Below are positions 2,912 to 50,624 of a DNA stretch of 64,000 nucleotides, in pieces (position 1 is the first letter of the stretch; the number at the start of each line of letters is the position of its first letter). Both the position numbers and the translations under genes were made by a program. Below the pieces are notes generated by a model, which did not search any database, was not told the origin of the DNA, and saw nothing but the letters and a program-made list of their open reading frames with translations. This stretch comes from Sulfolobales archaeon (GTDB taxonomy: Archaea > Thermoproteota > Thermoprotei_A > Sulfolobales > NBVN01). Where the stretch lies: positions 6,325 through 70,324 of the forward strand of contig JAWBQY010000005.1 in NCBI GenBank assembly GCA_038844925.1, given 5' to 3'.

Positions 2912-3091
2912 CTACTACTTTAATTCCTTTATCAAACGTTTAAAGTTTTTGATGACATCCCCCACATCGGAAAGCCTCATCCCCAAGGGTGGAGGGGGTC
3001 AAATCCTTAAAAGCTCAGTACTTCGTAGAGGGTTTTCCCTGAGGAAGGTTAGCTATAAAATATTAGACTACCTTACTTTAATGGTGTCTTA

Positions 3092-4147
3092 GTGGTTGGT
3101 GGGGTATCCGTAGGTATTATTAGTTGGGGGGCTTACATCCCTAGGTTTAGGATTAAAGTATCAGATATTGCTAGGTTATGGGGTTTTGATCAGCTATTAG
3201 TTAAGTCATTAAATATTGAGGAGAAGGCCGTAGCTAACGTAGATGAGGACGCAACTACTATGGGTTGGTATGCAGCTCGTTCAGCCATTATGAGGGCAGG
3301 TATAAATGTAGGTGAGTTGGGAGCTATTTTCCTTGGAACTGAGTCTAAGCCCTATGCAGTCAAACCAAGCGCAACTATAATAGGTGATGCGTTAGGACTG
3401 CCTAACAAGAAATTAGCATCTGATATGGAGTTTGCTTGCAGAGCTGCTGGTGAGGGGATTAGAATTTCAATAGGTTTAGTGTCCAGCGGTATGATTAAGT
3501 ACTCCTTAGTAGTTGGTTCTGATACTGCTCAAGCTAATCCTGGAGACGTCTTAGAGCTTACCGCAGCTTCAGGGGCTGCTGCCTACATCATAGGTCCTAA
3601 GGATGAAGGTGTTGCATACTTTGAGGGCTCGTATACGTATACGAGTGATACCCCAGACTTTTGGAGGAGGGATGGATCGCCGTACCCACTTCACGGTGAG
3701 GTATTTACTGATGAGCCAGCTTACTTCAACCACATAGTCAATTCTGTAAAAGGCTTGATGAGTGAGCTAGGTCTTAGACCTGAAGACTTCGACTACGCAA
3801 TATTCCACCAACCAAATGGTAGGTTCCCACTAAGAGTGGGGGCTGAGTTAGGATTCCCGAAAGATAAAATACTTCCAGGACTGGTGAACCCTTGGATTGG
3901 TAATACGTATAATGCTTCAGCATTATTAGGCTTAGCTAAGGTTTTAGAGGAGGCTAAACCTGGGCAGAGGATATTACTAGCAACGTTTGGGAGTGGGGCA
4001 GGCAGCGACTCATTCAGCATCGTAACTACTGATAAGTTGTTAACTAGGGTTAACAACGCGTTAAAGGTTACTGACATGCTAAACAATAAGATATACATTG
4101 GATATGATGCTTATGCGAAGTATAGAAAATTGTTGGAGAGGATATGA
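3092..4147 (+). CDS. hydroxymethylglutaryl-CoA synthase (archaeal type)
   Basis: WGAYIPRFRI N-terminus plus GTESKPYAVKP, DMEFACRAAG (catalytic Cys), FHQPNG and GNTYNAS. It is first in the HMGCS/thiolase/DUF35 gene order. Confidence 0.9.
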   Translation: MVGGVSVGIISWGAYIPRFRIKVSDIARLWGFDQLLVKSLNIEEKAVANVDEDATTMGWYAARSAIMRAGINVGELGAIFLGTESKPYAVKPSATIIGDALGLPNKKLASDMEFACRAAGEGIRISIGLVSSGMIKYSLVVGSDTAQANPGDVLELTAASGAAAYIIGPKDEGVAYFEGSYTYTSDTPDFWRRDGSPYPLHGEVFTDEPAYFNHIVNSVKGLMSELGLRPEDFDYAIFHQPNGRFPLRVGAELGFPKDKILPGLVNPWIGNTYNASALLGLAKVLEEAKPGQRILLATFGSGAGSDSFSIVTTDKLLTRVNNALKVTDMLNNKIYIGYDAYAKYRKLLERI

Positions 4148-5289
4148 GCATGGCCTGTAGGAAGGTGTACATCGCATCAGCATCTATGATTAGGGTTAGC
4201 AGGTATTTCACTAAATCATATAAGGAGTTAGCATTCGATGTTGTGGATGAAATCTCTAGGAATTTAAGCAATGACGGTTTAAACAACATAGACTACGTTA
4301 TAGTGTCAAACGTATTTAGCGATTCAATGCTAGATCAACTTGACATCTCCACAATTTTAACTCAGGAGTTAGGCCTCACACCTAAGCCTGCATTAAGAAT
4401 TGAAACCGGTGAGTCAAGCGGTTTAGCAGCTATTGCGCATGCCTACGCCCTAATTAAGTCTGGACTAGCCTCATCAGTCCTCGTCATAGGCGTTGAAAAG
4501 AGTAGTGAATATCCAACCACCGCCATTAATAAACATCTAACTAAATTACTTGACTATGAGGTTGAATCCATATATGATTTCGCGTTAGTTAACGAAGCAG
4601 CCTTCCTCATGAAGGAATATATGGAGAGATACAGGTATAGCAGGGAGGACTTAAGCAGTTGGTCTGTAAAAATGCACAGCAATGCTGTTAGGAACCCCTA
4701 CGCTCAGTTAAAATTCACTGTAACTAAAGAGCAAGTAGTTAATAGTCAAGTACTCTCCGACCCGTTAAGACTGCTTGATTCGTTTCCAATAGGTGATGGA
4801 GCAGCGGCTATACTACTCACAAGTAATGATGGCTTAATATCAAATAGCGACTACGTCGAGATTGAGGCAGTATTCCAGGCAACCGCACTACCGCTTAACT
4901 TAAGAGATAACATACTCGAATTACCGGCTACTAAACTCCTCTTCAGTAGGTTAGTAAAGGAATGTAAAGTAGATATTAATGATGCTGTTTTAGAAATACA
5001 CGACTCATACAGCATACTTGGATACCTAATAATCGAAGAGTTAGGACTGGTTAGGAGGGGTAAAGCTCCTGAAGTCATCAACGACTTAAATAATGTAAAC
5101 TTAAGCGGTGGATTGAAGGCAAGGGGGCACCCTATCGGCGCTACAGGCGTCTACCAAGTCGCAGAAATATTTAAAATTCTGACAGAAGGGTTAGGCGATG
5201 TTAGACGTAACGTTACGTGGGGGTTAGCACACAGTATGTCAGCCTTAGACTTAAATTCAGCAGTAGTAGTTGTTAGGAGGTGTAGGTAG
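4144..5289 (+). CDS. thiolase-family protein (archaeal acetyl-CoA acetyltransferase paralogue) lacking the nucleophilic Cys
   Basis: Thiolase-like motifs VIGVEK, DPLRLLDSFPIGDGAAA, HDSYS and GGLKARGHPIGATGV are present. The active-site loop reads IETGESSGLAA where the paralogue at 46045-47205 has VEAACGSGGAA. There is a 4-nt overlap with the HMGCS gene. Confidence 0.8.
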   Translation: MSMACRKVYIASASMIRVSRYFTKSYKELAFDVVDEISRNLSNDGLNNIDYVIVSNVFSDSMLDQLDISTILTQELGLTPKPALRIETGESSGLAAIAHAYALIKSGLASSVLVIGVEKSSEYPTTAINKHLTKLLDYEVESIYDFALVNEAAFLMKEYMERYRYSREDLSSWSVKMHSNAVRNPYAQLKFTVTKEQVVNSQVLSDPLRLLDSFPIGDGAAAILLTSNDGLISNSDYVEIEAVFQATALPLNLRDNILELPATKLLFSRLVKECKVDINDAVLEIHDSYSILGYLIIEELGLVRRGKAPEVINDLNNVNLSGGLKARGHPIGATGVYQVAEIFKILTEGLGDVRRNVTWGLAHSMSALDLNSAVVVVRRCR

Positions 5290-5705
5290 TGAAGCTATCA
5301 ATACCTAGGTTTTGGAGGAGGAGATTTGACTACTACTCTATTAGGATTACCGAGTGCTTAGAATGTGGTAGGAAGTCATACCCCAGGAGACCTATATGCC
5401 CGTACTGCAAGTCACGTAATGTTAGGACTACGAACTCAGTAGGACTCGGTGAAGTAGTAAGCTATACCATCAGCTATTACAGAATTGAGGGAAGTGAGGA
5501 AAACCTACCGAAGATCATAGCTTTAATAAGATTGGACGAGGGACCCATAGTCATTGGTGAGGTAGTAGATGTAAGCCAATCTGAAGTGCGTCAAGGCTTA
5601 AGAGTTGAGGCAGTTTTAAGGAGGTTGAAGTCTGAAGACCCCAGCGGGCTGATATACTACGGACTTAAGTTCAGACCACTAATAACCAACTCAGCCGTCG
5701 GCTAG
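5289..5705 (+). CDS. DUF35 OB-fold / zinc-ribbon protein (thiolase-HMGCS complex subunit)
   Basis: The zinc ribbon CLECG...CPYCKS is followed by an OB-fold-like C-terminus. Its start overlaps the thiolase stop (TAGTGA). Confidence 0.85.
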   Translation: MKLSIPRFWRRRFDYYSIRITECLECGRKSYPRRPICPYCKSRNVRTTNSVGLGEVVSYTISYYRIEGSEENLPKIIALIRLDEGPIVIGEVVDVSQSEVRQGLRVEAVLRRLKSEDPSGLIYYGLKFRPLITNSAVG

Positions 5706-7782: not shown

Positions 7783-8175
7783 TCAACGCTCTCATTATAC
7801 GGTTGCCTACGTAGGCCTTCACACCTATATGCAAACCAATAACCTACTGCAAACTGCATGAGATACCAGTAAATTCTGTTTAACATAATTTAATACTAAC
7901 TCGTTCTATAAATACCCTCAGCAAGCATGATGGACAACCACGCGGTAATTTTAAATCCATGGCAAGCAAATCCTAACTTAAGCAGTAATGAGAGTTGAGT
8001 GAGAACTAGCTAATGTTGATGACAACGAGAGGATATCAACGCATGGAGGGCTGAGAGCAATAAGTAGTACTGACTACTACGAAGCTTAAATTCTTAAAAG
8101 TTATTCCCAATTCTAGGGAAGTTAATCTTATCTTATTTACTGCTTAAGTAGATTTAATTAGTGAGGTTGGTGTGA

Positions 8176-9387
8176 TTGGGCATTGATGATATGTTTAAGA
8201 GAATTGTTGAGAGGAGTTTAACGTCTAAGATATTTAATGATAGGGAAGTTTTAAGGCCGGATTACATACCTAATGAATTGCCGCATAGGGATGAGCAGAT
8301 AAGTAAGATAAGTTCTATACTAGCTCCTATCTTCAGAGGTGAGAGGCCAAGTAATATATTCATCTACGGGTTGACTGGGACCGGGAAAACAGCAGTTGTT
8401 AAATACGTCTTAATGAAGTTTGAAGAATATACTAATAAGTTTGGGAGGTCTTTTAAGTACAGCTATATTAACTGCAGGTATGATGACACTACGTATAGGG
8501 TCTTAGCTAGGTTGGCCGACTCTGTAGGTATTAAGATACCGTTTACGGGGCTTTCAACTTCAGAGGTTTTCAGAAGGATTGTGTTAGCCTTAGATGGTAT
8601 GGGGGTACCGTTGGTTGTGATCTTAGATGAGGTTGACTCGCTTGTGAAGAAATGCGGTGATGAACTACTTTACAGGTTGACTAGAGTTAACGAAGAGCTT
8701 AAGAAAGGGAAGGTAACAATAGTTGGTATAACTAACGATGTTAACTTTATTGAGAGGTTGGACCCCAGGGTTAAGTCAAGCCTCGGCGAGGAGGAGGTTA
8801 TCTTCCCACCATATGACGCACTCCAGCTCGAAGACATACTCTCACGTAGGGCTGTTAAAGCCTTCAGACCCGAGGTACTTGATGAAGGCGTTATTTCACT
8901 ATGCGCGTCGATAGCTGCTAAAGAACATGGAGATGCTAGGAGGGCTTTAGACCTGTTAAGAGTTGCTGGTGAGATAGCTGAGAGGAAGGGGGATGGCAAG
9001 GTTACTAAGGAGCATGTACTAATGGCTAGGACGGAAATAGAGAGAGATAGAGTTGCTGAAGTTATTAAGACCTTACCACTACATAGTAAGTTAGTACTAC
9101 TCTCACTAACCATAGACGGCGGTGATAGTAGAACTACTGGAGACGTCTACAACATATATAGAGAATTATGTAGGAATTTAAGCGTAGACCCAGTCACGCA
9201 GAGGAGGGTTAGCGACATAATTAGTGAGTTAGACATGCTTGGAATAATAAACGCTAAAGTGGTTAATAGGGGTAGGTATGGGAAGACGAGGATTATAAGC
9301 CTCAATGTAGACTTAAATACCTTAATTAAGGTGTTGAAGGAGGAAGGAAGGCTTGAAAACATTATTAAGAACTTTCGGAGTAGATGA
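8176..9387 (+). CDS. cdc6: Orc1/Cdc6 replication initiator
   Basis: The LRPDYIPNELPHRDEQ N-terminal signature is present, along with Walker A GLTGTGKT and Walker B VVILDEVD. AAA+ lid motifs (GDARRALDLLR) and a C-terminal winged helix are also present. Confidence 0.95.
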   Translation: MGIDDMFKRIVERSLTSKIFNDREVLRPDYIPNELPHRDEQISKISSILAPIFRGERPSNIFIYGLTGTGKTAVVKYVLMKFEEYTNKFGRSFKYSYINCRYDDTTYRVLARLADSVGIKIPFTGLSTSEVFRRIVLALDGMGVPLVVILDEVDSLVKKCGDELLYRLTRVNEELKKGKVTIVGITNDVNFIERLDPRVKSSLGEEEVIFPPYDALQLEDILSRRAVKAFRPEVLDEGVISLCASIAAKEHGDARRALDLLRVAGEIAERKGDGKVTKEHVLMARTEIERDRVAEVIKTLPLHSKLVLLSLTIDGGDSRTTGDVYNIYRELCRNLSVDPVTQRRVSDIISELDMLGIINAKVVNRGRYGKTRIISLNVDLNTLIKVLKEEGRLENIIKNFRSR

Positions 9388-16956: not shown

Positions 16957-18801
16957 TCACCTCCAAACTAACGCCCTACCGATATCGTAGTGGCCTAAGA
17001 GAGGTTCTGAAGTCTTAAATAATACGTACCCCGACCTAATGGTCGGACTTCTAAGCAGGCCTACCCTATCTGGGGCTAATAACATATAGCTTAAGTACTC
17101 CTTAGGTGTGTCAACAAGTTCTAGGAAGCTCTTCTCACTTCTGAAGATGACTTTAGTATTAGTTAGCTGAGTTATAATTTTATGCACGTCCTTCGGTGAA
17201 TGAGTGGAGAATATGAAGCCCAACCCCCTAGCCCTACCCAACCTAGCAATCATAGATATGAAGTCTGCAAGCATGTCAACCTCCTCATATGAAGTCCCCT
17301 CAGATGGGAAGAATCTATGCGCCTCATCTAAAACCACTATTGCTGGCCTATCCGTACTTCCTGAATGTGCACCCCTCTTCCAGGCGTATAAAGACCTAAG
17401 ATACTCATACGCTATTAAGTTAGCTATGAAGGTACTTGACCCTCTGGCCATCGGATAATCTAAGTCTAGGATTACTGGCCACCTACACTCCTTGACCAAC
17501 ACATCTATCGGTGGGATCCCCAGGTAATTACCATCAACCACTACGTCAACATCGTCAGAACTTGCTAAGAAGTTAAAAACCCTCTCTATATTCTCTAGAG
17601 TCGACTTATGTAACTTCATGACCTCGGAAATGCTCTTCTTAAGCTGTATAAACCTCATATACAGTGATGTAAAGCTATTGATACCTCCTGCCTGATCTTC
17701 TAGGTAATTTATTATGTTCCTTAAGTAAAGCCTTGCCTGACGTGAGAATAGAGGTAGTGAGTCTAAGTGGTCCTTCATCCTCACATAACTTAATGAAATA
17801 GGTATGACCTCGATGTTGACTTTAAATGTATCTGAAGTTAATGTAGCAATGACCGACTTAATAATGCCGAGATCCCTACCCTCCAACGATAATTTATAGT
17901 CAAGTTGAGTGTTATGGAATAATGATAAAGTCCTGCTAAACCTATCCCTTATGTACGCATTGGAAAATTCTACTATGCTACGGTATAACCTCCTCCTAAG
18001 AGGTACTAGGTAGGTCACCCATTTAGGATACTTGCTTAGTAGGTCGTCCAACCCATTTATAAGTATTTCAGAGTCCTTCGGCACTTTATTAGGCGGTAAA
18101 GCTATTTGAGTGTAATCTCCAGTAGCATCAATTATTGATATGAAGATATCCTCCCAACTACTTAACATACTGAAGACTAAGTTCTTAATAAAGGTCGTCT
18201 TACCAGCACCTGTAGTCCCCAATACTAATAGGTGTTTGAAGAACTCATATCTCGGTATTTTAATGGGTACTAAACTGCTAGGAGTTAGTGATTGAGGAGA
18301 TGTTAAAGAACCTACTACAACACCATCGGTTGGTAAGCCAGTAACCACCTGTACTAGTGAGGGGTTCGTAGGTATGGCTACTGGTGATTGAGGTTCTACA
18401 GGCGTTGCTACAGGTAATCCATCCTCAGTTAGAAGGGGTTCTGCCTCCACTAATGTATAAGTCATTAAACCCTCAACTCTGTAATCTAAACCAAGACTTA
18501 ATGGGGTCTCAACCTCAGAAGCTGCATCAGTCCTCGCAACACTCCTAACCCTCAACCCAACATACTTTAAACTCTTTAAATCAACAGCTATTAAGTAGTC
18601 CCCAATACCTATAGTTAGTCCTTCGCCGAAGTAGACATACGGATCTACCTCAACAACTACTCTAACCTCACCATCAGACACTTTAGAAGGACTCCTCCTA
18701 CTAACACGTCCTACGACCTTACCTGCATTTGAGATCTTAGCTAAGGCTTCGTAAGACCTTTCCTTAAGCAACTCAATTAATGAATTAAAACCATCACTCA
18801 T
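16957..18801 (-). CDS. HerA-like (DUF87/FtsK-HerA superfamily) ATPase
   Basis: An N-terminal HAS-barrel-like region is followed by a P/S/T-rich linker. Walker A is GTTGAGKTT and Walker B is VVLDEAHRF. It overlaps the upstream NurA-like gene by 8 nt. Confidence 0.85.
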   Translation of the reverse strand: MSDGFNSLIELLKERSYEALAKISNAGKVVGRVSRRSPSKVSDGEVRVVVEVDPYVYFGEGLTIGIGDYLIAVDLKSLKYVGLRVRSVARTDAASEVETPLSLGLDYRVEGLMTYTLVEAEPLLTEDGLPVATPVEPQSPVAIPTNPSLVQVVTGLPTDGVVVGSLTSPQSLTPSSLVPIKIPRYEFFKHLLVLGTTGAGKTTFIKNLVFSMLSSWEDIFISIIDATGDYTQIALPPNKVPKDSEILINGLDDLLSKYPKWVTYLVPLRRRLYRSIVEFSNAYIRDRFSRTLSLFHNTQLDYKLSLEGRDLGIIKSVIATLTSDTFKVNIEVIPISLSYVRMKDHLDSLPLFSRQARLYLRNIINYLEDQAGGINSFTSLYMRFIQLKKSISEVMKLHKSTLENIERVFNFLASSDDVDVVVDGNYLGIPPIDVLVKECRWPVILDLDYPMARGSSTFIANLIAYEYLRSLYAWKRGAHSGSTDRPAIVVLDEAHRFFPSEGTSYEEVDMLADFISMIARLGRARGLGFIFSTHSPKDVHKIITQLTNTKVIFRSEKSFLELVDTPKEYLSYMLLAPDRVGLLRSPTIRSGYVLFKTSEPLLGHYDIGRALVWR

Positions 18802-19870
18802 ATTCTAAAGCCTCGTAAGGTATTGAAACACCCCTCATTATGAGCATGTTGACGAAGATCTTAGTCATCTTGCTGAGCACGCCTTTACTATATGAGTCAG
18901 CTATGCTTAACCTATAAGGTATGTCTAAGCCGTAGTCGTAAGCCTCAAATACTATGTGGGAGAGCACATCATCCATGAAATCATACGGCATATCATCAAA
19001 TACTTCCTTAAGCACTTCAATACGGAATACTGAGTAAGTATTATAGATTGAGGACTTAGGCACTGCAACGTATGTGAAGTATCTTGCAGGTCCCTCACCA
19101 CGTCGGTATAAATATATGGGCGTTCTAATAGGTTTAGACCTCACATTCATATCCTTAATTAAAGCCTCAACGAATTCCACATCAGAAACACCACTAGAAA
19201 TCGATGGCGGTATGTAATAAGAATTCCTAACCCTCTTAACTATATTTACTGGAAGTAAACCGTACCTATATGCTTCCCTAATTAACTTAGTCCTACACTC
19301 ATTAAGCCTAGATAACTCATCATTCCAACGGCATACCATCTTAGGGTGGTGTAAGGGGTAGTAGATGGGGCCGTCAATCATTAATATGGTATTAGGTTGA
19401 AGTATTTCTAAAGACTTACTAATCATGTAGGACTCTAGGTTTATCCTAACGTCATGAGATATAGCACCTAATGGGAGGTTAGGATCGTCAGCATATCTTA
19501 AGTTAAGCATTATGTAAGAGTCTGTAACTCCGGCCATCCTACTACCTAGTAAGGTTCCAGCAAATGGCGCCTCAGTAACGGATGTCATAACATCGGGGTA
19601 TACTGTAATTTTTGACGCACATATAACGCCTACTGATAATGCGACCTCATTGTTATTTGTCATAATGTTAGATGAGGCTGCATCAACAGCACCACTTACT
19701 AAAGGTCTTGAAGGTCTACTAATAACTTTAGGTTTATCTAAAACCTCAACGTCTTGAGATACTTCCAAAGTAGTGAGTCTTACAGTAGCTCTACTAAAGT
19801 TAGAGTTATTAGTTATACTGTCCGCAAGTTCGTTCAGCAACTGTAGTAGCATTCGGTGCTCCAGGCCCAA
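18794..19870 (-). CDS. NurA-like nuclease
   Basis: NurA-type motif order is present: GAVDAASS near the N-terminus, ILMIDGPIY in the middle, and IPYRLSIADSYSK near the C-terminus. It is translationally coupled to the HerA-like gene. Confidence 0.65.
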   Translation of the reverse strand: MGLEHRMLLQLLNELADSITNNSNFSRATVRLTTLEVSQDVEVLDKPKVISRPSRPLVSGAVDAASSNIMTNNNEVALSVGVICASKITVYPDVMTSVTEAPFAGTLLGSRMAGVTDSYIMLNLRYADDPNLPLGAISHDVRINLESYMISKSLEILQPNTILMIDGPIYYPLHHPKMVCRWNDELSRLNECRTKLIREAYRYGLLPVNIVKRVRNSYYIPPSISSGVSDVEFVEALIKDMNVRSKPIRTPIYLYRRGEGPARYFTYVAVPKSSIYNTYSVFRIEVLKEVFDDMPYDFMDDVLSHIVFEAYDYGLDIPYRLSIADSYSKGVLSKMTKIFVNMLIMRGVSIPYEALEYE

Positions 19871-30670: not shown

Positions 30671-31429
30671 TTAGGGCCCTATGGATATACCACCATCAAT
30701 ATTTATGACTTGACCGGTTATGTAGTTAGAATCGTCGGATGCTAGGAATAGCACTAACTTAGCTACTTCTTCAGGTTTACCCAACCTACCTAAAGGTATC
30801 TTCTGGATAAATCCTCTCTTAACTTCTTCAGGCCATGGTGCAGTCATAGGAGTTTCTATAACTCCTGGTGCGACAGCATTGACTAATATGTTGTACTTAG
30901 CTAATCTTCTAGCTAAGGCCTTAGTTAAACATATGATGCCTGCTTTAGAAACCGCGTAATCTATTCCGGCAAATATACCGCCTACCTGGCCAGCAAGTGA
31001 GGCCATATTAATTATTTTACCGAAGCCCTGCTCCTTCATATACTTAACGACCTCCTTAGAGAACATTACAGCGGAAGTTAAGTTAACCTTCATAACCCTA
31101 TCCCAGCGTTCCTCAGTTATCTCATCAAGAGATGCTGATGAGAATATACCGGCATTATTCACTAAGATGTCTATCCTACCATACTTACGTATTACCTCAT
31201 CCACAGCCTTCCGTACATCCTCAACCCTAGATACGTCAGCTTTTATCGGTGTTACTTCACCATACTTACTTAACTCTTCGTACGTCTTGGCTAACTCGTC
31301 CTCAGCAATATCTATGATGACTACTTTAGCACCTTCCTTAATAAATTCTGTAGCGATGGCCTTACCTATACCTCGAGCACCACCTGTTATAATGGCGATA
31401 CGACCCTGGAGTTTCAAGGTAAACACCAC
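30671..31429 (-). CDS. SDR family oxidoreductase (FabG-like)
   Basis: ITGGARGIGKAIA, NNAG and YAVSKAG (YxxxK) are present. I trimmed the start to GTG 31429 because a TTTTATTAG element lies ~30 nt upstream; the longer ORF-track start at 31510 adds a non-homologous leader. Confidence 0.85.
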   Translation of the reverse strand: MVFTLKLQGRIAIITGGARGIGKAIATEFIKEGAKVVIIDIAEDELAKTYEELSKYGEVTPIKADVSRVEDVRKAVDEVIRKYGRIDILVNNAGIFSSASLDEITEERWDRVMKVNLTSAVMFSKEVVKYMKEQGFGKIINMASLAGQVGGIFAGIDYAVSKAGIICLTKALARRLAKYNILVNAVAPGVIETPMTAPWPEEVKRGFIQKIPLGRLGKPEEVAKLVLFLASDDSNYITGQVINIDGGISIGP

Positions 31430-31523
31430 GAAGATCGTCGTATTAGAACTAATAAAACTTCTAAGAGGTAAATTCAGAGCTGTTTGTAAAGATTTTAAAT
31501 GCCACACCAACTTGGTTCTAGGG

Positions 31524-32501
31524 ATGTGTTTGAGTTTAAGCTCGTTGAAAAAAGAATTACTCCTTGATATGTATTATAAGATGGTCTTAGTGAGAAGGTT
31601 TGAAGAGAAGGTAGTAGAGCTTTATAGGGCTGGTGAGATTCCTGGAATAGCTCATGGGTATATAGGTGAGGAAGCTGTTGCAGTAGGTGTGTGTTCAGCC
31701 CTTAGAAGGGATGACTACATATTAAGTACTCATAGAGGGCACGGTCATAGCTTAGCTAAAGGCATAGACCCTAAGTATTTAATGGCTGAACTCTACGGTA
31801 AGAAAACAGGTGTTTGTAAGGGTATAGGAGGTTCTATGCATAGCACAGAGCCGGATGTTGGTGTGATATTTTCCTCAGCAATCGTTGGTGGTAACATACC
31901 TATAGCAGTAGGTGTTGCACTAGCGTTTAAGATGCGTAAGGAGGATAGGGTTGTAGTTTCATTCTTCGGCGATGGTGCTACTAATACCGGTGCATTTCAC
32001 GAAGCACTTAACCTAGCATCTATTTGGAAGTTACCTATAATCTTCGTATGTGAGAATAACTTCTACGCAATATCAACGCATGTCAGCAAGTCTGTAGCAG
32101 CTAAGGAAATAGTTGATAGAGCCATAGCTTATAACATGCCGGGTGTTGTAGTTGACGGCAATGATGTATTAGCAGTATATGACGTTACTTTAAAAGCTGT
32201 TGAGAGGGCTAGGAGGGGGGAAGGTCCCACATTAATTGAGGCTAGAACCTATAGATGGCTCGACCATGGAATGTACTACTTAGGTAAGTACAGACCTGAT
32301 GAGGAGGTCATGATGTGGAAGCAGAGATGTCCTATAAAGCTTCTAAAGGAGAGGTTGTTAAAGGAGGGAATAGCTACTGAGTTAGAGTTAAGTAAGTTAG
32401 AGGAGAGGGTAGCACTTGAGATTGATGAGGCGGTCAGGTTTGCTAGGGAGAGTGAGGAACCCGATTTAGACTTCGTCAAGCAATTCGTATATGTGAGGTG
32501 A
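31524..32501 (+). CDS. 2-oxoacid dehydrogenase E1 component alpha subunit (TPP-dependent)
   Basis: MVLVRRFEEKV, GEEAVAVG, HRGHGH, the GDGATNTG TPP motif and CENNFYAIST are present. I set the start at ATG 31524, since the ORF-track extension runs antisense through the SDR gene. Confidence 0.9.
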   Translation: MCLSLSSLKKELLLDMYYKMVLVRRFEEKVVELYRAGEIPGIAHGYIGEEAVAVGVCSALRRDDYILSTHRGHGHSLAKGIDPKYLMAELYGKKTGVCKGIGGSMHSTEPDVGVIFSSAIVGGNIPIAVGVALAFKMRKEDRVVVSFFGDGATNTGAFHEALNLASIWKLPIIFVCENNFYAISTHVSKSVAAKEIVDRAIAYNMPGVVVDGNDVLAVYDVTLKAVERARRGEGPTLIEARTYRWLDHGMYYLGKYRPDEEVMMWKQRCPIKLLKERLLKEGIATELELSKLEERVALEIDEAVRFARESEEPDLDFVKQFVYVR

Positions 32502-32508
32502 GGGTTGG

Positions 32509-33498
32509 TTGGCTGTTCGCGAAATAACATATGCTGAGGCGATAAGAGAAGCATTAAGAGAGGAGATGTTAAGAGATGAGAGAGTCTTCCTAATGGGTGA
32601 GGATATAGGGTTAATCGGCGGTGTTTTTAAAGTTACCCAAGGGCTTTATGAGGAATTCGGACCTGAGAGAGTGAGGGACACACCCATATCGGAGACAGCT
32701 ATAGTGGGGGCTGCTATAGGGGCTGCTATAGCTGGAATGAGGCCTATCGCAGAGATAATGTATATGGACTTCCTAATGTGTGCTGGGGATCAAGTAATTA
32801 ATCACTTACCTAAGATTAGGTTTATGAGTGGGGGAAAGCTTAAAGTACCAGCCGTTATTAGAACTCAGTACGGACTCTACAGATATGCAGCAGCCCAACA
32901 CTCGCAGTTCTACCCAGCATTTCTGATGAACATCCCTGGAGTATATGTTGAAGTACCTTCAACGCCCTACGATGCTAAGGGGTTACTTAAATCAGCCATA
33001 AGGGATGAAAATCCAGACATATTCATAGAGTGTGCCGCTCTATACAGGTTGAGAGGCCCTGTACCGGATTACGAGTACACCATACCTTTAGGTCAGGCAG
33101 ACATTAAGAGGGAGGGTAAGGACGTCACAGTATTCGCTATTTCATACATGGTTCACGTAGCACTCTCAGCAGCTAAGAAATTAGAGAGTGAGGGGATAAG
33201 TGTTGAGGTTGTAGACCCCAGAACCCTTAACCCCTTTGATAAGAAGACATTAGTAGAGTCTATTAAGAAGACCGGACGTTTAGTAGTGATTGAGGCAGAC
33301 CATAAGACAGCGGGTGTTGGTGCTGAAGTATTAGCAATAGCTATGGAGGAGGCTTACGACTATCTTAAGGCACCAGCAGTTAGGTTAGCTGCTGAGGATA
33401 TACCACCACCATTCTCACCTAAGGCGTACAACGCGTCTCTACCTAATGAAGAGAAGTTAATAAATACTATAAAGAGACTGCTTAAACATAGCAGGTAA
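32509..33498 (+). CDS. 2-oxoacid dehydrogenase E1 component beta subunit
   Basis: ITYAEAIREALREEM, GEDIG, RVRDTPISE and the C-terminal transketolase-like domain (VVDPRTLNPFD) are present. Confidence 0.9.
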   Translation: MAVREITYAEAIREALREEMLRDERVFLMGEDIGLIGGVFKVTQGLYEEFGPERVRDTPISETAIVGAAIGAAIAGMRPIAEIMYMDFLMCAGDQVINHLPKIRFMSGGKLKVPAVIRTQYGLYRYAAAQHSQFYPAFLMNIPGVYVEVPSTPYDAKGLLKSAIRDENPDIFIECAALYRLRGPVPDYEYTIPLGQADIKREGKDVTVFAISYMVHVALSAAKKLESEGISVEVVDPRTLNPFDKKTLVESIKKTGRLVVIEADHKTAGVGAEVLAIAMEEAYDYLKAPAVRLAAEDIPPPFSPKAYNASLPNEEKLINTIKRLLKHSR

Positions 33499-33523
33499 TC
33501 ACTATAAAAAGTAGATCCCTATA

Positions 33524-33772
33524 ATGGTAGTGGGTGTGAACTTGGTTGAAGTAATAATGCCTAGAATGGACCCTGAAATGAGGGAGGGGAGGATAGTTGA
33601 ATGGTTGAAGAATGAGGGGGATTTTGTTAGGGAAGGAGAAGTAATTGCGAGAATTGAAGCTGAGAAAGTAGTCTTTGACTTAGAAGCACCTAAGTCAGGA
33701 GTGATTAAGAAATTACTTGCGAATGTAGGTGATGTCATCCCAGTCGGGAAGGCTATAGCTATAATTGAATAG
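33524..33772 (+). CDS. free-standing lipoyl-domain protein (E2 N-terminal domain only)
   Basis: MPRMDPEMREGRIVEWLKNEGDFVREGEVIARIEAEKVVFDLEAPKSGVI is a lipoyl-attachment fold with the lysine in EAEKV. The ORF stops right after the domain. Confidence 0.8.
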   Translation: MVVGVNLVEVIMPRMDPEMREGRIVEWLKNEGDFVREGEVIARIEAEKVVFDLEAPKSGVIKKLLANVGDVIPVGKAIAIIE

Positions 33773-33794
33773 GTAGGTTATGAGGAGTTAATTA

Positions 33795-34508
33795 ATGAAA
33801 GTAATTAAGACTTTATCGCTTAGATCGTGGCCTAGGGCAACGATAGCAGAGAGACTCTCAAAAAGTTATAGGGAGGGGGTCCACGTAACACTTCACGGCG
33901 AGTACGACGTAGGCCGCTTAAAAGAGTTGAAGGAGAGGTTAGAGCCCGTGATTATGGAGAAGTATAACACACGTCTAACTTATACCTCATTACTGGTAAA
34001 AATAGTTTCACACGTCATTAACAATCATCAAATATTTAACTCAATCATAGATGGTGATGAGGTTAAGGTTATAGAGGATGTAAACATATGCGTAGCTGTT
34101 CAGAGCAGTAAGTTAGGCTTAGTTACACCGGTAATTAAGAACGCCAACCTAAAGAAGTTAGGTGAGATCGCATTACAGCTTAACGAATTGGTAAGTAGGG
34201 CTCGAGAGGGGAAGTTAAGCATTAAGGACCTCATGGAGGGTACTTTCACAATATCTAATGTAGGTGTCTTAGGTTCTGTAGACGCGTTCACTCAGATAAT
34301 CAACCCGCCACAGGTAGCTATCCTCGGAGTAGGTAGGATAGTAGATAAACCAGTAGTTATTAATAATGAGATAAGGATCAGACCTACATGTACTTTCAGC
34401 CTCACATTCGACCATAGAGTAATTGACGGCTACCATGGTGCGGAATTTCTAGCTACTTTAAAAGAATTTCTTGAAAAACCTGAGATGGTGATTAAAGAAG
34501 ACGTCTAA
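33795..34508 (+). CDS. 2-oxoacid dehydrogenase E2 acyltransferase catalytic domain (no lipoyl or subunit-binding domain)
   Basis: FTISNVGVLG and the catalytic DHRVIDG are present. The N-terminus starts directly at the catalytic-core region, and an in-frame TAA sits 2 codons upstream of the ATG. Confidence 0.85.
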   Translation: MKVIKTLSLRSWPRATIAERLSKSYREGVHVTLHGEYDVGRLKELKERLEPVIMEKYNTRLTYTSLLVKIVSHVINNHQIFNSIIDGDEVKVIEDVNICVAVQSSKLGLVTPVIKNANLKKLGEIALQLNELVSRAREGKLSIKDLMEGTFTISNVGVLGSVDAFTQIINPPQVAILGVGRIVDKPVVINNEIRIRPTCTFSLTFDHRVIDGYHGAEFLATLKEFLEKPEMVIKEDV

Positions 34509-34546
34509 GTTGGAGAGTGCCTTAGAATTATTTAGAGGGGGTACCT

Positions 34547-35899
34547 ATTAAGGTAGTTGTAATTGGTTCAGGACCTGCCGGCTACGTAGCAGCTATAAGG
34601 GCTGCGCAATTAGGTGGTGAGGTTACTGTCGTAGAGAAAGACTCTATCGGCGGTGTTTGCGTTAATAGGGGTTGCATACCGACTAAAGCTCTTTCCTCTA
34701 TAACGTCTACTATAAAGAAGTTAAGACAGCTTAAGAAGAAGGGCATATTAAATGAGGATTTAAGCATTAATGTTGAGAAGGTCTTCGCTAACAGAGACGT
34801 CATTGTGGGTAGGTTGACAAAAGGTGTTGAGTACTTGCTGAGAAAGTCTAACGTACAGTTAGTACGTGGAGAGGCAAGAATAGTTAGCAAGGAATTCGTC
34901 GATGTTGGGGGAGTTAAGCTCCGATATGATAAACTAATAATAGCTACTGGGTCCCTACCTGCGCAGCTGAAGATACCTGGGATAGAGTACGTTAATGCCG
35001 TAAGCGGTGACAACTTTATCACCATGAATGAAGTCCCTCAGAGACTTCTAATAGTTGGAGGTGGTCCTATCGGAGTGGAGTTAGCACAGATCTACCGTAC
35101 CTTAGGAAGTGATGTAAGTGTCGTTGAAATCATGCCACACATACTGCCGAACTTAGATAGTGAGGTAGCACTAACATTGCAGAAAATACTCTCTAGGGAG
35201 GGGGTCCGAATATACACTAATACTTCTGTTCATAGATTTGAGAAGACTTCAGATGGTGTTGAGGCATATCTCTCCAATAACGTTAGGCTAGCCGCTGATA
35301 CGGTAGTCCTAGCAGTCGGTAGGAGGCCGAACACTGTTAATTTAGGGGTTGAGGTACTAGGAGTTGAGTTGGGTAAGAGGGGGGAAATACTGACCAATGA
35401 TTGTATGATGACTAACGTACCCAACGTATACGCAGCTGGCGATGTCGTTGGTAGAAACTTCCTAGCATATACAGCTTTTGAGGAGGGGGTGGTAGCTGCT
35501 GAGAATGCTTTAGGACTTAATTCGAAGGTTAACTACTCAGCAATCCCGATAGCGATATTTACAGATCCAGAAGTTGCGAGCGTTGGGATGAGTGAGGATG
35601 AGGCTAGGAAATTGGGTGACGTACTCGTAGGTAAGTTCCCACTAGTAGCTAATGGTAGAGCGCTTACTTTAGACTCCTATGAGGGCTTCATCAAAATCGT
35701 AGCTAATAAGAAGGGGAAGCTCCTAGGAATGCACATGGTAGGACCTGAAGCCTCAGAACTAATCCACATAGCATCATTAGTTTTAAGTAGGAACGGTGAT
35801 GTTGCAGAACTTTTAAACACCCTATACGTACATCCAACAATTTCTGAGGGGATTAAGGAAGCCGCACTAGCTATACTTAAAAAACCTATACACATCTAA
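34547..35899 (+). CDS. lpdA: dihydrolipoamide dehydrogenase (E3); start set at in-frame ATT (ORF track starts at GTG 34805)
   Basis: The same frame upstream of 34805 encodes KVVVIGSGPAGYVAAIRAAQLG and the redox disulfide GGVCVNRGCIPTK. The in-frame TAG is at 34523-34525. The C-terminus carries the HPTISE motif. Confidence 0.85.
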   Translation: MKVVVIGSGPAGYVAAIRAAQLGGEVTVVEKDSIGGVCVNRGCIPTKALSSITSTIKKLRQLKKKGILNEDLSINVEKVFANRDVIVGRLTKGVEYLLRKSNVQLVRGEARIVSKEFVDVGGVKLRYDKLIIATGSLPAQLKIPGIEYVNAVSGDNFITMNEVPQRLLIVGGGPIGVELAQIYRTLGSDVSVVEIMPHILPNLDSEVALTLQKILSREGVRIYTNTSVHRFEKTSDGVEAYLSNNVRLAADTVVLAVGRRPNTVNLGVEVLGVELGKRGEILTNDCMMTNVPNVYAAGDVVGRNFLAYTAFEEGVVAAENALGLNSKVNYSAIPIAIFTDPEVASVGMSEDEARKLGDVLVGKFPLVANGRALTLDSYEGFIKIVANKKGKLLGMHMVGPEASELIHIASLVLSRNGDVAELLNTLYVHPTISEGIKEAALAILKKPIHI

Positions 35900-43187: not shown

Positions 43188-43189
43188 GG

Positions 43190-44743: not shown

Positions 44744-44827
44744 TTAGTCCTCCGTAAATCGTACTACGGAAAAAGATATTTAAGTATAAAGTAATTTTTA
44801 AATTAATGGCGTATCAACCCTTCAAGG

Positions 44828-45652
44828 ATGTTTGCTATGGATTTAAGCCTTATGATGATAGCGCTCTCATGCATGGGTGATGAATTAATTTACCTACTCA
44901 TAACCTCCATACTAGTAATAATGCGTAGGGATTTAGGTATTAAGATATTGACCACATTACTAATCACTATGTACTTAAATCAAACACTTAAGTTCTGGTT
45001 TAATATTCCTAGGCCTGCAGACCACTTAACCGCTCTACATTCCCTGCCACCACTTATTAAGTTATTAGTTGGTGGTGAGGGGCCTTCATTCCCAAGCGGT
45101 CATGCTCAAATATCATCTACTTTCTGGACTTCACTAACTTTAAACGTCCCCAGTAAGACTACTGCTACAACTATGGTAGTACTACCAATACTAATTGCTT
45201 ATTCTAGAATTGCTCTAGGGGTGCATACTCCCTTAGATGTTGTTGTAGCACTAATCATAGGTTATTCAATACCGTTAATAACAAACCTTACAGATGTAAC
45301 GCTTAAGAAATGCGGAAGTAGGTACGAGGTCCCCATAAAATTATCCCTACTTACATCTCTACTTATATTCTCAGTAGTGGTAGGCTACCCTAAACTAGCG
45401 TTGATTGCTGGGTTAATGGTTGCTGGAGTGATAGCCCATAAACTTACATTAGATAGTGGTAGGAGTTTTACTAAACGTCTCGGGACTTCAGCGCTTTCAT
45501 TAGTTACGTTGGCTTCGGGATATGCCCTACTGGACTTCATAGGGGGTTTAGATAATGCTGTTGTGGAGTTCGCAGTAGCGTTAGTTATAGGTATTACTGC
45601 CTACATAGTAATACCAGTCAAACTCAACGTCTTCAAGATTAGATGGCGTTAA
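44828..45652 (+). CDS. PAP2-family lipid phosphate phosphatase
   Basis: The three PAP2 motifs are KFWFNIPRP, PSGH and SRIALGVHTPLDV. It is a multi-TM protein. Confidence 0.8.
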   Translation: MFAMDLSLMMIALSCMGDELIYLLITSILVIMRRDLGIKILTTLLITMYLNQTLKFWFNIPRPADHLTALHSLPPLIKLLVGGEGPSFPSGHAQISSTFWTSLTLNVPSKTTATTMVVLPILIAYSRIALGVHTPLDVVVALIIGYSIPLITNLTDVTLKKCGSRYEVPIKLSLLTSLLIFSVVVGYPKLALIAGLMVAGVIAHKLTLDSGRSFTKRLGTSALSLVTLASGYALLDFIGGLDNAVVEFAVALVIGITAYIVIPVKLNVFKIRWR

Positions 45653-46038
45653 CTTCCCTTAGGTTTGAATTTAACTATGTAGGGTACGTAGCCATCTAAG
45701 GTCATTGCCGACCTCCTAATAGTGGCTTCTACCTCCATACCTATGTAGACCTCTTCAGGCTTTACGTTAGTTAGCTGTGTTAGCACTTTACCATTACTTG
45801 TTTCAATAAGCGCTATAACTAAAGGTGACATGTTTTCAAAACCCTCTATAGGTACGTTAACAACCGTATATGAGAGAATCCTCCCTGAGTTGCCTAAAGC
45901 TGTTTTCTCAACATTCCTTGAGGAGCACTTAGGGCATGCAGCCTTAGGTGGGTAGCACGTGTATCCGCAGTCCAAACATCTAATACCTACTAGGTCTAGG
46001 AGGACGTCCTTTAACCTCCATAATCTCTGAAACGACAT
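45649..46038 (-). CDS. DUF35 OB-fold / zinc-ribbon protein (second copy)
   Basis: A CLDCG...CPKCSS zinc ribbon plus an OB-like C-terminus. It is last in the second triad. Confidence 0.8.
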   Translation of the reverse strand: MSFQRLWRLKDVLLDLVGIRCLDCGYTCYPPKAACPKCSSRNVEKTALGNSGRILSYTVVNVPIEGFENMSPLVIALIETSNGKVLTQLTNVKPEEVYIGMEVEATIRRSAMTLDGYVPYIVKFKPKGS

Positions 46039-46044
46039 ACACTA

Positions 46045-47205
46045 CTACCTCCTTAGTATTATGGTAGTTATATTTGAGCCTACACCGCCGATATTCTGAG
46101 TTAAGCCGACCTCACCGCCAACTTTAACTCCTGGGAAATCCCCTCTTAACTGCATAACGACCTCACATACTTGGTAAACTCCTGTAGCTCCTACTGGATG
46201 ACCTCTAGACTTCAGACCTCCTGACGGGTTTACAGATGGTTTATCACCAGGTTTAAACCTACCCTCAGCAACTAATTTAGCCCCCATGCCCTTAGGTGCA
46301 AAGCCTACGTCTTCAAGTGTTATCACACCGTTTATTGAGTAAGCATCGTGAAGTTCTGCCACATCAACATCCTTAGGGGATAGCTTAGCCATTTTAAATG
46401 CTCTTTCAGCTGATAACCTCGACGCTAAGAATGAATCTAACTCAAATCTAGATGAGATGTCAGTACTGTCTAATGCGTTGCCTATTCCAGCAATTAAAAC
46501 CGGTGTGTCGTTGTACTTCTTTGCGACATCCTCAGAAGCTAGAATTACTGCAGCAGCCCCATCACTCATCGGGCATGAGTCTAGCAGTCTTATAGGGTCA
46601 GCTATTATAGGTGATTTAACGACGTCTTCCGCGGTAATCTTCATTTTCAAATGTGCGTATGGATTGTAGTAACCGTTTTCATGCATTAATATAGGCCATG
46701 CAGACATATCGTCCCTCCCCACATTATACTTATTCATATAGTACCGCATTATCAGCGCGTTAAGACCTGAGAAACTAATTCCGTAAGGTATTTCGAAGTC
46801 AGCGTCTGCCGCGTAGGCAAGTCCGCGTGCTACTTCAGGTGTAGTCCTCTCACTTAATTTCTCGACCCCTACTACAGCTACAACGTTAGCTAATCCTGAG
46901 GATATTAATGCGTATCCAGCAACCAATGCCGCACCGCCTGAGCCGCAGGCAGCCTCTACCTTAAACCCTGAAGTACCTCTTAAACCGCAGTAATCTGCTA
47001 CGAGTGATGCTAAGTTCTCCTGCTCTGCTTGACTGCTTAACATATTACTTACTACTATGAATTCCGGTACAACGTTACTGGCATCATCTATAGCTTTGAA
47101 GAGTGCTTCACCAGCTAAGTCTCTTAGAGGGCGTTCGTAGAACCTACCAACGTTACTCATACCTGAACCAACTACGAATACCTTCCTAAACACTATAGCC
47201 ACCAC
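46045..47205 (-). CDS. thiolase (archaeal acetyl-CoA acetyltransferase type), catalytic Cys present
   Basis: VEAACGSGGAA (nucleophile Cys), VGVEK, DSCPMSDGAAA, HDAYS and GGLKSRGHPVGATGV are present. Confidence 0.85.
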   Translation of the reverse strand: MVAIVFRKVFVVGSGMSNVGRFYERPLRDLAGEALFKAIDDASNVVPEFIVVSNMLSSQAEQENLASLVADYCGLRGTSGFKVEAACGSGGAALVAGYALISSGLANVVAVVGVEKLSERTTPEVARGLAYAADADFEIPYGISFSGLNALIMRYYMNKYNVGRDDMSAWPILMHENGYYNPYAHLKMKITAEDVVKSPIIADPIRLLDSCPMSDGAAAVILASEDVAKKYNDTPVLIAGIGNALDSTDISSRFELDSFLASRLSAERAFKMAKLSPKDVDVAELHDAYSINGVITLEDVGFAPKGMGAKLVAEGRFKPGDKPSVNPSGGLKSRGHPVGATGVYQVCEVVMQLRGDFPGVKVGGEVGLTQNIGGVGSNITTIILRR

Positions 47206-47207
47206 AC

Positions 47208-48119
47208 TTATTGTAACGTAATTACTGAAGTGTTAGTTAAAAGCTTATCTAAATAGTTAACACATCCACGCATTGGACGTAAGTCCTCAACAACTTTAAG
47301 AATTAACGAAGTCGCACAAGTGAAGTTATCATCTAAGTCTAAAAGCAGTATGTGATCGCCTGGTGATGAAATCTCGAGAGACCTAACTAAAGTGAGTAGT
47401 GTATGTGATGTACCGAAGTAACCTATAGTTTTAACATATTTGGAGGGCTCTAATGAAGCATCGCTAATACCTACAGACTTTAAAATCTTAGAACAATATC
47501 TTAAGTCCTTTAGATTCGTAGCTACGTACTTTATTTCCTGAGGCCTAACCCCAGCCCTCTCTAATAAATTCTTCAAGAACTTAGATAGCCTGCCGAGGTA
47601 GAGGTCTGCATGGAAGTCATTTCTAGCAACCTTACTAGGCAGTAGAGGCGGTGAGTTTATTAATGACTCACTTGAAAGTACTTCTACATATCCTTTAGAC
47701 TTACTGAGAACCATTGAAACAGCTGCAGCTGCCTCACTACAGTCCGAAGAAACTACTAGGACATCACCCTCCTCAACTATCTCCTCAGCCAAACTGATTA
47801 GATGGTATAAATCGCTTATATCGTATTTCTTAATATCATTTAGCTTAAGTAGGTCGGCTAGTAATGCTGACTTAACACCGATTGTCCTATCACTTGACAA
47901 GTAAACTAATGCTTTAAAATTACTATAGCCGTTATACCTTAGCACTTGACATGATTCATAACTCATCGTTATTAAATCTTCGTCAGGACCTAATACTGGA
48001 GTTAAACTATTACCATTACGCTTCCTGTACCTTGGTATGTAAGCACACCATGCCGATATGTAGAATCTCATAAACCTTCTCTTAATACTTAGAGATGGGG
48101 TTTTTATGGTTTTCGTCAA
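47208..48119 (-). CDS. HMG-CoA synthase-like protein, apparently catalytically degenerate
   Basis: AWCAYIPRYR aligns with the HMGCS N-terminus. However GTES becomes SSDR, EFACRAAG becomes SDLYHLIS (no Cys), FHQPN becomes YVATN, and GNTYNAS becomes GYFGTSH. It occupies the same gene position as the HMGCS in the first triad. Confidence 0.6.
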   Translation of the reverse strand: MTKTIKTPSLSIKRRFMRFYISAWCAYIPRYRKRNGNSLTPVLGPDEDLITMSYESCQVLRYNGYSNFKALVYLSSDRTIGVKSALLADLLKLNDIKKYDISDLYHLISLAEEIVEEGDVLVVSSDCSEAAAAVSMVLSKSKGYVEVLSSESLINSPPLLPSKVARNDFHADLYLGRLSKFLKNLLERAGVRPQEIKYVATNLKDLRYCSKILKSVGISDASLEPSKYVKTIGYFGTSHTLLTLVRSLEISSPGDHILLLDLDDNFTCATSLILKVVEDLRPMRGCVNYLDKLLTNTSVITLQ

Positions 48120-48197
48120 AAGACTACATATGTTTTAGACATTAATCTAACGCATTTACGTAAATATTACCTTATAAAGTATGTACGTCTAATTTCT

Positions 48198-50597: not shown

Positions 50598-50624
50598 TTA
50601 AATACTAGCTATGGGTCTGGAATA

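Follow-up and report, generated by a model that had tools for sequence, protein, structure and literature searches.

A complex of acetoacetyl-coenzyme A (CoA) thiolase, 3-hydroxy-3-methylglutaryl-CoA (HMG-CoA) synthase (HMGCS) and a DUF35 protein has been presented as the general archaeal way of pulling the unfavourable thiolase reaction forward, by channelling acetoacetyl-CoA into the synthesis of HMG-CoA. The part of PMC6392133 that deals with the solved particle, 6ESQ, describes a shared CoA site built from all three subunits, and the passages of PMC12960953 that cite Vogeli 2018 report that, taken out of the complex, the thiolase is insoluble and the HMGS inactive. Here we describe two operons of this type in a 64,000-nucleotide stretch of DNA from a Sulfolobales archaeon (JAWBQY010000005.1), which we call the window and whose positions are used throughout. 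One, operon A, joins an HMGCS with all of its catalytic residues to a thiolase subunit that carries glutamate in place of the nucleophilic cysteine; the other, operon B, joins a cysteine-bearing thiolase to a decayed HMGCS.

Relatives of each half of this arrangement have been described. In the Friedel-Crafts acyltransferases PhlACB of Pseudomonas and MucABC of Streptococcus, an HMGS-like subunit that lacks the catalytic tetrad accompanies a cysteine-bearing thiolase-like subunit and a DUF35 protein; the dead HMGS-like subunit is kept because its live thiolase-like neighbour functions only once the particle is assembled (PMC6392133, PMC12960953). In Sulfolobus acidocaldarius, the cysteine ketothiolase of the Saci_1121/Saci_1120 pair is soluble and active only with DUF35, and it is efficient in the condensation direction (10.1101/2024.07.05.601840). 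The Ltp2 and Sal aldolases are Cys-less thiolase folds that work with a DUF35 domain through the tyrosine of a YDHF, YDCY or YDCF motif (PMC12329534). The closest public precedent for the thiolase subunit of operon A is structure 4YZO of ST0096, a "thiolase-like protein" of Sulfolobus (Sulfurisphaera) tokodaii, for which our literature search found neither a published paper nor a function.

Operon A consists of three plus-strand open reading frames (ORFs), each of whose starts overlaps the preceding stop (at 4144–4147 and 5289), and they encode HMGCS A (3092..4147, 351 amino acids), the thiolase-like subunit, here thiolase A (4144..5289, 381 amino acids), and DUF35 protein A (5289..5705, 138 amino acids). 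The operon resembles the Methanothermococcus complex in gene order, in the HMGCS tetrad, in the thiolase fold (template modelling (TM) score 0.92) and in the zinc ribbon and OB fold of DUF35. HMGCS A matches the M. thermolithotrophicus HMGCS (chain 6esq_I) over its whole length with E = 4.6e-117, and by alignment it appears catalytically intact: E84, C116, H239 and N271 are all present and are invariant in 78/78 aligned HMGCS sequences, HMGCS A included. The assignment of the three genes and the retention of the HMGCS hallmark residues, both made in a preliminary description of this DNA from its letters and ORFs, therefore stand. The DUF35 proteins of the two operons (5289–5705 and 45649–46038) match PF12172 and PF01796 (zf-ChsH2 and OB_ChsH2_C in Pfam) above the gathering score, giving each a rubredoxin-like, four-Cys zinc ribbon with an OB fold behind it, and a CxxC...CxxC pattern is visible in their alignment. 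DUF35 A, a putative scaffold subunit, is 56% identical to the A-type DUF35 of Zestosphaera and 36% identical to DUF35 B of the window.

Thiolase A matches the Pfam families Thiolase_N and Thiolase_C_1 (E = 2.4e-17 and 1.6e-11), and its closest solved relatives are 7YVY of Pyrococcus furiosus (E = 1.9e-52), ST0096 (4YZO, the second-best sequence match in the PDB, E = 1.7e-51) and the 6ESQ thiolase (E = 3.1e-44). The nucleophilic cysteine of the CxS motif, at the strand-helix elbow of the fold, is absent from it, and Glu90 stands there. In three separate phmmer alignments, RIETGESSGLAA of thiolase A lies opposite KIEAACASGGAA (7yvy), RVEAACASGSLA (6esq_A) and RVDNTSGSGGSA (4yzo); at the site itself, RIETG-E-SSGLAA faces KIEAA-C-ASGGAA or RVEAA-C-ASGSLA. 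Glu90 also occupies the Cys column of both MAFFT alignments (122 and 225 homologues). The preliminary description had the acyl-accepting cysteine replaced by Glu/Ser; the three PDB and two multiple alignments all assign the replacement to Glu90, Ser91 being simply the next residue, and alignment against characterised archaeal thiolases places no cysteine at the nucleophile position. The Glu90 codon, GAG (4411..4413, + strand), would have to change at every one of its three positions to become TGT or TGC, which rules out base-calling error as a credible cause. The three cysteines counted earlier are indeed the only ones, at residues 5, 274 and 380, and the histidine loop reported as retained is present as H329 (G328-H329-P). 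Also kept are the serine of the CxS motif (motif names from PMC12960953) and H286 of the HDxF loop, which here reads HDSY, with Phe changed to Tyr as in the HDAY of the operon B thiolase.

An AlphaFold model of thiolase A built from 64 homologues is of high quality (predicted local distance difference test (pLDDT) 95.8, predicted TM score 0.94), and DSSP places Glu90 at the start of helix 89–105, just past strand 83–86, which is the nucleophile elbow. The top Foldseek match is 6et9_C, the thiolase subunit of the archaeal complex (TM score 0.92, root-mean-square deviation 1.9 Å). As far as sequence can show, thiolase A is inactive as a Cys thiolase. It departs from the Methanothermococcus subunit in having Glu90 in place of Cys85, which makes the first half-reaction, formation of the acetyl-enzyme, impossible as described there; the HDSY loop, an altered Gly-Gly loop and the presence of a working thiolase in a second operon are further differences. 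ST0096 shares the absence of the cysteine (its loop is the 4yzo segment given above) and aligns with the thiolase A model at TM scores of 0.83–0.91, but it has Ser rather than Glu in the nucleophile column, and a related Acidianus protein, P0099, has Asp there and falls inside the Cys-less clade. Other Cys-less thiolase folds, those of Ltp2-ChsH2(DUF35), the Sal-Shy steroid aldolases and the Trypanosoma brucei SCP2-thiolase-like protein, match at TM scores of 0.81–0.86. Unlike Ltp2 and Sal, thiolase A has His at the motif (HDSY) and belongs to a mevalonate operon rather than to a steroid cluster, and the sequence match to 6ok1 reaches only E = 5e-6; an aldolase of this type was rejected for thiolase A, as the catalytic Tyr of YD[HC][FY] is absent and His286 stands instead. 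Current annotation labels thiolase A a "thiolase family protein".

The same substitution extends well beyond this genome. An identical thiolase A protein is encoded on 5 contigs from independent "Sulfolobales archaeon" assemblies, with close variants on at least 17, and homologues as distant as 40% identity still have an intact ORF. In the 120 best homologues of thiolase A, the nucleophile column holds Glu in 85, Cys in 27, Gln in 4, Asp in 3, Ala in 1 and Tyr in 1; recurrence of Glu in 85 of 120 puts the substitution far beyond chance and answers, in the affirmative, the question raised in the preliminary description of whether orthologues share it. To avoid bias, we anchored a survey on HMGCS, taking 80 loci from GTDB species genomes and classing them by what follows the HMGCS gene. 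The next gene was a thiolase with Glu at the site in 40/80 loci, with Cys in 11/80, with Asp in 4/80 and with Gly in 1/80, and the HMGCS-thiolase-DUF35 order of the window was found in 56/80. An Asp thiolase lay elsewhere in the locus in 5/80, and a partial thiolase missing the site region in 1/80. DUF35 came straight after HMGCS, with no thiolase gene, in 12/80; the contig ended after HMGCS in 4/80, and a different gene followed in 2/80.

By taxon, Cys is found in Pyrodictiaceae, euryarchaea, Micrarchaeota and most Chloroflexi; Glu in Acidilobaceae, Caldisphaera, Aeropyrum, Thermodiscus, Zestosphaera, Hestiella, Tiamatella and many metagenome-assembled genomes of Desulfurococcales and Sulfolobales; and Asp in Caldivirga, Thermocladium and others. 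In Acidilobus saccharovorans and Pyrodictium abyssi alike, HMGCS, thiolase, DUF35 and HMG-CoA reductase genes form one string, with Glu at the site in the former and Cys in the latter. The two histidine loops have eroded in places: at the HDxF position the Glu-type thiolase of Zestosphaera reads YDTY and those of Tiamatella-like genomes TDTF or TDQF, the GHP histidine is lost in several relatives (GNP, GNS or GFP), and a Geothermarchaeota thiolase has lost all motifs (Gly, FDSY, GYP). The thiolase-free loci (L019, L020, L025, L030-L034, L036, L048, L066 and L067) belong to Thermogladius, Staphylothermus and other Desulfurococcaceae and include two complete Thermogladius genomes and Staphylothermus; in some of them HMG-CoA reductase follows DUF35. 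In these 12 loci the HMGCS stop abuts the DUF35 start, which indicates a clean deletion of the thiolase gene. The Glu substitution is accordingly a trait of a large part of Thermoproteota and not an oddity of one genome.

Two Chloroflexi thiolases, at L075:7026-8204 (Brevefilum, Anaerolineae) and L086:7719-8894 (Chloroflexia), have Asp for Cys ("VEAADASGG") and keep HDA[TF] and GH[PT]; the former gene stands directly after HMGCS and the latter about 0.7 kb downstream of it. Both proteins group away from the archaeal Cys-less clade in our tree, and their change from Cys to an acidic residue looks independent of the archaeal one. YDTY is likewise present in Zestosphaera/Zestomicrobium L002:5998-7137, L015, L016 and L017; its Tyr is at the position of the catalytic base of the Sal, Ltp2 and SLP aldolases (YDCY, YDHF, YDCF). 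The likeness may be fortuitous, or it may hint that the protein has taken on another function in these genomes.

The paralogue at 46045..47205 on the minus strand, which the preliminary description had cited as possessing the nucleophile, does so: alignment identifies it as Cys87. What that description had not brought out is that the gene is the middle one of a three-gene operon (operon B, 45649–48119, minus strand), which is a mirror image of operon A and makes the story a reciprocal one. Thiolase B (46045..47205, 386 amino acids) is a canonical archaeal thiolase by Pfam match and alignment. It retains Cys87, HDAY and GHP and shares 55–62% identity with the Cys thiolases encoded in the operons of Pyrodictium, Hyperthermus and Ignisphaera, as against 34% with thiolase A. 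DUF35 B (45649..46038, minus strand, 129 amino acids), its presumed partner, is 52–53% identical to the B-type DUF35 proteins of loci L004 and L005. The third gene (47208..48119, minus strand), now annotated as a "hypothetical protein", encodes the HMGCS relic. Its longest ORF, of 303 amino acids, starts at TTG 48119; orthologues are 286–289 amino acids long and begin at Met17 of this ORF, and the true start is therefore probably ATG 48071, 16 codons downstream, giving 287 amino acids.

Profile comparison identifies this ORF as a decayed HMGCS. No Pfam family reaches threshold on it, and a word-indexed protein search found almost nothing; BLASTP against HMGCS A gives 22% identity at E = 4e-8, and its best sequence matches in the PDB are PhlA-type proteins. 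When the 8-member relic family was aligned by hhalign with a 78-sequence HMGCS profile, the two matched over the full length, in 285 columns, with 99.6% probability (E = 1.8e-23). In this alignment all four catalytic residues are lost: E84 is replaced by Ser, the segment with C116 is deleted, H239 has become an invariant Asn and N271 a Tyr. When 1.84 billion representative proteins were searched exhaustively with the family profile, only 24 hits reached E <= 1e-3, namely a handful of relatives of 228–288 amino acids followed by true HMGCS and HMGCS-DUF35 fusions.

A relic-Cys thiolase-DUF35 arrangement is also present in a sister genome (L087), in L004-L006 (Zestosphaera and two other lineages) and on six metagenome contigs (L088-L093). 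In L004-L006 the upstream ORF has 252–257 amino acids. A match of 97.2% probability (E = 3.5e-11) ties the short upstream ORFs to the relic family of the window; in single-sequence hhalign against HMGCS, the ~255-residue ORFs of L004-L006 score weakly (47%, 0.7% and 11% probability), and their homology to HMGCS is drawn through the window's relic family. For the L005 ORF by itself, homology to the relic or to HMGCS was not supported. In more distant relatives of thiolase B (L094-L102 and L114) the relic is gone and thiolase-DUF35 pairs remain. Operon B often adjoins phenylalanyl-tRNA synthetase genes, in the window as elsewhere, and both operons share one contig in a second genome (CAZXJO010000003.1; L007 for A, L087 for B). 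The surroundings of operon B (window 41517–51632) are syntenic with L087, L004 and L005, with genes for phenylalanyl-tRNA synthetase alpha and beta, a PAP2 phosphatase, an S8 subtilase and LPG_synthase_TM. A further set of thiolase-like ORFs on metagenome contigs (L109, L112, L113, L115 and L116; ~3001-4167 or equivalent) has Pro at the nucleophile ("ENGPASG"/"ENGPAAG"), is 38–39% identical to thiolase B and is followed by an overlapping DUF35 gene, with no HMGCS nearby.

Operon B resembles PhlACB and MucABC in combining a tetrad-less HMGS-like protein, a Cys thiolase-like protein and DUF35. It differs in that PhlC and MucB lack the HDx[FY] motif whereas thiolase B keeps the archaeal HDAY, and in that its relic is far more reduced (~250–300 amino acids) and much faster evolving. 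Thiolase B is as close to ordinary archaeal acetoacetyl-CoA thiolases as the identities above indicate and therefore shows no hint that its acceptor specificity has changed. Operon A reverses the pattern of these systems, with a live HMGS and a dead thiolase, and has no described counterpart; a PhlACB-type acyltransferase was rejected for it, given that HMGCS A keeps the full tetrad. The role we propose for operon B resembles that of Saci_1121/Saci_1120, and the relic-free pairs L094-L102 share the two-gene layout, but operon B also has an HMGCS relic.

To compare rates, we set the window against CAZXJO010000003.1; synonymous divergence (dS) between them is saturated, which makes the ratios of nonsynonymous to synonymous divergence (dN/dS) rough. 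The live enzymes are the more conserved: HMGCS A at 87.7% amino acid identity (dN 0.069, dN/dS 0.036) and thiolase B at 88.6% (dN 0.061, dN/dS 0.044). Their dead partners, thiolase A (74.1%, dN 0.163, dN/dS 0.075) and the relic (75.2%, dN 0.154, dN/dS 0.125), evolve at ~2.4 times the rate of their live neighbors, and with ratios this low both are still under purifying selection. The corresponding values are 78.5%, 0.145 and 0.124 for DUF35 A, and 89.9%, 0.062 and 0.046 for DUF35 B. The A and B types of DUF35 form separate clades, 31–40% identical to one another and each ~40% identical to the Pyrodictium DUF35. In a neighbor-joining tree, the Cys-less proteins stand beside the operonic thiolases of Pyrodictiaceae (clade bootstrap 96%), with the thiolase-B clade (100%) outside, and a sister relationship between the Cys-less clade and thiolase B was never recovered in the bootstrap trees. 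There is a strong positional case that thiolase A holds the ancestral slot beside HMGCS.

The explanation we consider probable, though well short of certain, is that an HMGCS-thiolase-DUF35 operon was duplicated, that activity was lost reciprocally and that each dead subunit was kept as a structural partner. Copy A would have kept HMGCS activity and lost that of the thiolase, and copy B the reverse. Complex A would then be an HMG-CoA synthase whose thiolase subunit cannot run a Cys-dependent Claisen condensation, because Glu90 replaces the acyl-accepting Cys; this subunit may have persisted because HMGCS depends on DUF35 and a partner of thiolase fold for assembly and for the shared CoA site, a dependence known from the Methanothermococcus complex. 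Complex B would comprise a working acetoacetyl-CoA thiolase (Cys87) and its own DUF35, with the shrunken relic as structural partner. Acetoacetyl-CoA would diffuse through solution from complex B to complex A, leaving the two reactions uncoupled; in bacteria and eukaryotes the thiolase and HMGCS reactions are uncoupled as well. A series of states supports this explanation: Pyrodictium has the operon intact, the window, Zestosphaera and Acidilobales have two half-dead ones, and the dead partner has disappeared from the A side in Thermogladius and from the B side in L094-L102. The view of thiolase A as a scaffold or pseudoenzyme, put forward in the preliminary description, is likewise supported by comparative evidence: the nucleophile is lost while fold and gene order are kept, the histidines erode, the gene is deleted in some lineages and a Cys thiolase is encoded elsewhere.

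Several observations weigh against reciprocal loss with structural retention. That thiolase A is inactive altogether, and not just as a Cys thiolase, we infer from mechanism alone. The AlphaFold model of the relic has a pLDDT of 53.7 from 8 sequences and its Foldseek matches are weak (TM score 0.35, best 6esq_I); it agrees with the profile result, but we do not count it as further evidence. On the question of origin the tree is weak, with 53% bootstrap for monophyly of the Cys-less proteins and 48% for their union with Pyrodictiaceae, and a single whole-operon duplication is for this reason not proven; nor did the neighbor-joining bootstrap settle the number and timing of Cys losses. Above all, the pocket has not simply decayed. 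Of 113 positions conserved at >= 93% in 130 Cys thiolases, 56 remain conserved in 84 Glu-type proteins, among them H178, H286-D287 and the entire NxSGGLKxRGHPxGATGxYQ block. In these 84 proteins Gly89 never varies, and conservation reaches 90–100% at Ser92, H178 and H286-D287 and throughout that block. Changes around the site are coordinated: in Glu types, Ala before the Glu is replaced by Gly (100%), Gly after Ser-Gly by Leu (85%), N149 by Ala (94%) and A288 by Ser (95%), and the C-terminal Gly-Gly loop, invariant in Cys thiolases, has become Ser/Asn-Gly/Ala. With Gly-Glu-x-Ser-Gly strictly conserved and both His loops present in most members, the pocket must still be under selection. The fixed changes fit a selected new role for the site, and the recurrence of Glu, Asp and Gln there, twice independently in Chloroflexi, looks non-random. 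A carboxylate and a Leu may plug the pocket or fix its state and so keep the shared CoA arm from being trapped unproductively, which would be compatible with a scaffold.

These same features would also fit a catalytic Glu90, whether as a nucleophile forming an acyl-glutamyl anhydride, as a general base, or as an acetyl-cysteine mimic that activates the second substrate in the manner of KSQ domains; in each version the subunit would go on adding chemistry to the making of HMG-CoA. Such chemistry has parallels: class I CoA-transferases form an acyl-glutamyl anhydride, KSQ ketosynthases (Cys-to-Gln) and chain-length-factor domains are precedents, and a FabH C112Q structure is among the PDB matches. 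To our knowledge, however, no thiolase-fold enzyme with a carboxylate nucleophile is known. The near-absolute Gly-Glu-x-Ser-Gly, the coordinated second-shell changes, the low dN/dS of thiolase A (0.075) and replacements that are nearly always Glu, Asp or Gln, with Asp arising separately in Chloroflexi, speak for catalysis; against it, several sub-lineages keep Glu or Asp and have lost the two histidines, Ser (ST0096), Ala, Tyr and Gly are also found at the site, 12 species loci have lost the gene outright but still have HMGCS-DUF35, the genome also encodes a thiolase that is canonical throughout, and the altered C-terminal Gly-Gly loop corresponds to the one that in PhlC supplies an oxyanion-hole amide (PMC6392133). 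We regard a catalytic Glu90 as quite unlikely; were it true, much of Thermoproteota would enter the mevalonate pathway via a carboxylate-using thiolase-fold subunit. A non-catalytic variant, in which the pocket binds the acyl-pantetheine arm and either presents the CoA ester to HMGCS or senses its level, would account for pocket motifs conserved without a nucleophile and would draw on the CoA site that PMC6392133, where it describes 6ESQ, builds from all three subunits. We hold this to be very unlikely: the loss of the gene in Desulfurococcaceae-type loci shows that HMGCS can dispense with the subunit in some lineages, although sequence data do not distinguish a regulatory or hand-over subunit from a scaffold.

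The products of the two operons might instead meet in one mixed particle, with HMGCS-A and thiolase-B dimers bridged by DUF35, the dead subunits serving as spacers and channelling preserved. The known complex consists of homodimers of each enzyme bridged by four DUF35 proteins (PMC6392133, PMC12960953), an architecture that allows dimers to mix; the operons co-occur in the same genomes, and lineages whose operon A is thiolase-less keep HMGCS-DUF35, as if another thiolase could dock. Yet each operon has its own DUF35, from clades long separated (31–40% identity), which suggests separate partner specificities, and beside each live enzyme a dead partner of its own persists under purifying selection; a mixed particle therefore seems unlikely to us. 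An artefact, be it a sequencing or assembly error or a decaying pseudogene, is so improbable that we reject it, with nothing found in its favour: GAG is three changes from the Cys codons, independent assemblies agree, the ORFs are intact, dN/dS is 0.075 and the model reaches a pLDDT of 95.8.

Our literature search, which left Vogeli et al. 2018 outside it, found no description of a Cys-less thiolase in an archaeal mevalonate operon, nor of an HMGCS relic beside a true thiolase. If reciprocal loss is correct, the channelling model does not apply to a large group within Thermoproteota, one that includes Acidilobus, Aeropyrum, Caldisphaera, Zestosphaera and, probably, Sulfolobaceae, where the operonic "thiolase" would not be a catalyst and the acetoacetyl-CoA for membrane lipids would come from another operon. 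Genome annotation and metabolic models would then need correction, and the orphan crystal structure of ST0096 would gain a biological context. The progression from intact through half-dead to partner lost would also offer an unusually clean record from nature of how pseudoenzymes come to persist within complexes of several subunits.

Upstream of operon A lies a TATA-like box, TATAAAAT (3054..3061, + strand; read from the sequence, with no statistics), ~31–38 nucleotides before the GTG start of HMGCS A, which is a possible promoter of the operon. The genes around operon A (TATA-binding protein, a short-chain dehydrogenase/reductase and a Na+/H+ exchanger) are without obvious conservation, and HMG-CoA reductase, which adjoins the operon in Acidilobus and Pyrodictium, is not next to it here. 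Elsewhere in the window (7783–9387), an Orc1/Cdc6 gene (8176–9387) follows a 390-nucleotide intergenic gap that may mark a replication origin, and a HerA-NurA pair lies at 16957–19870; neither has a bearing on the two operons. A 2-oxoacid dehydrogenase set occupies 31167–35899, with E1 alpha at 31167–32501, E1 beta at 32509–33498, E2 at 33795–34508 and E3 at 34805–35899. The E2 ORF holds the catalytic domain only, and the E3 match begins at position 62 of its Pfam profile; the N-terminal parts (lipoyl domain and start of the FAD-binding domain) may sit in other frames, or the starts may be mis-set.

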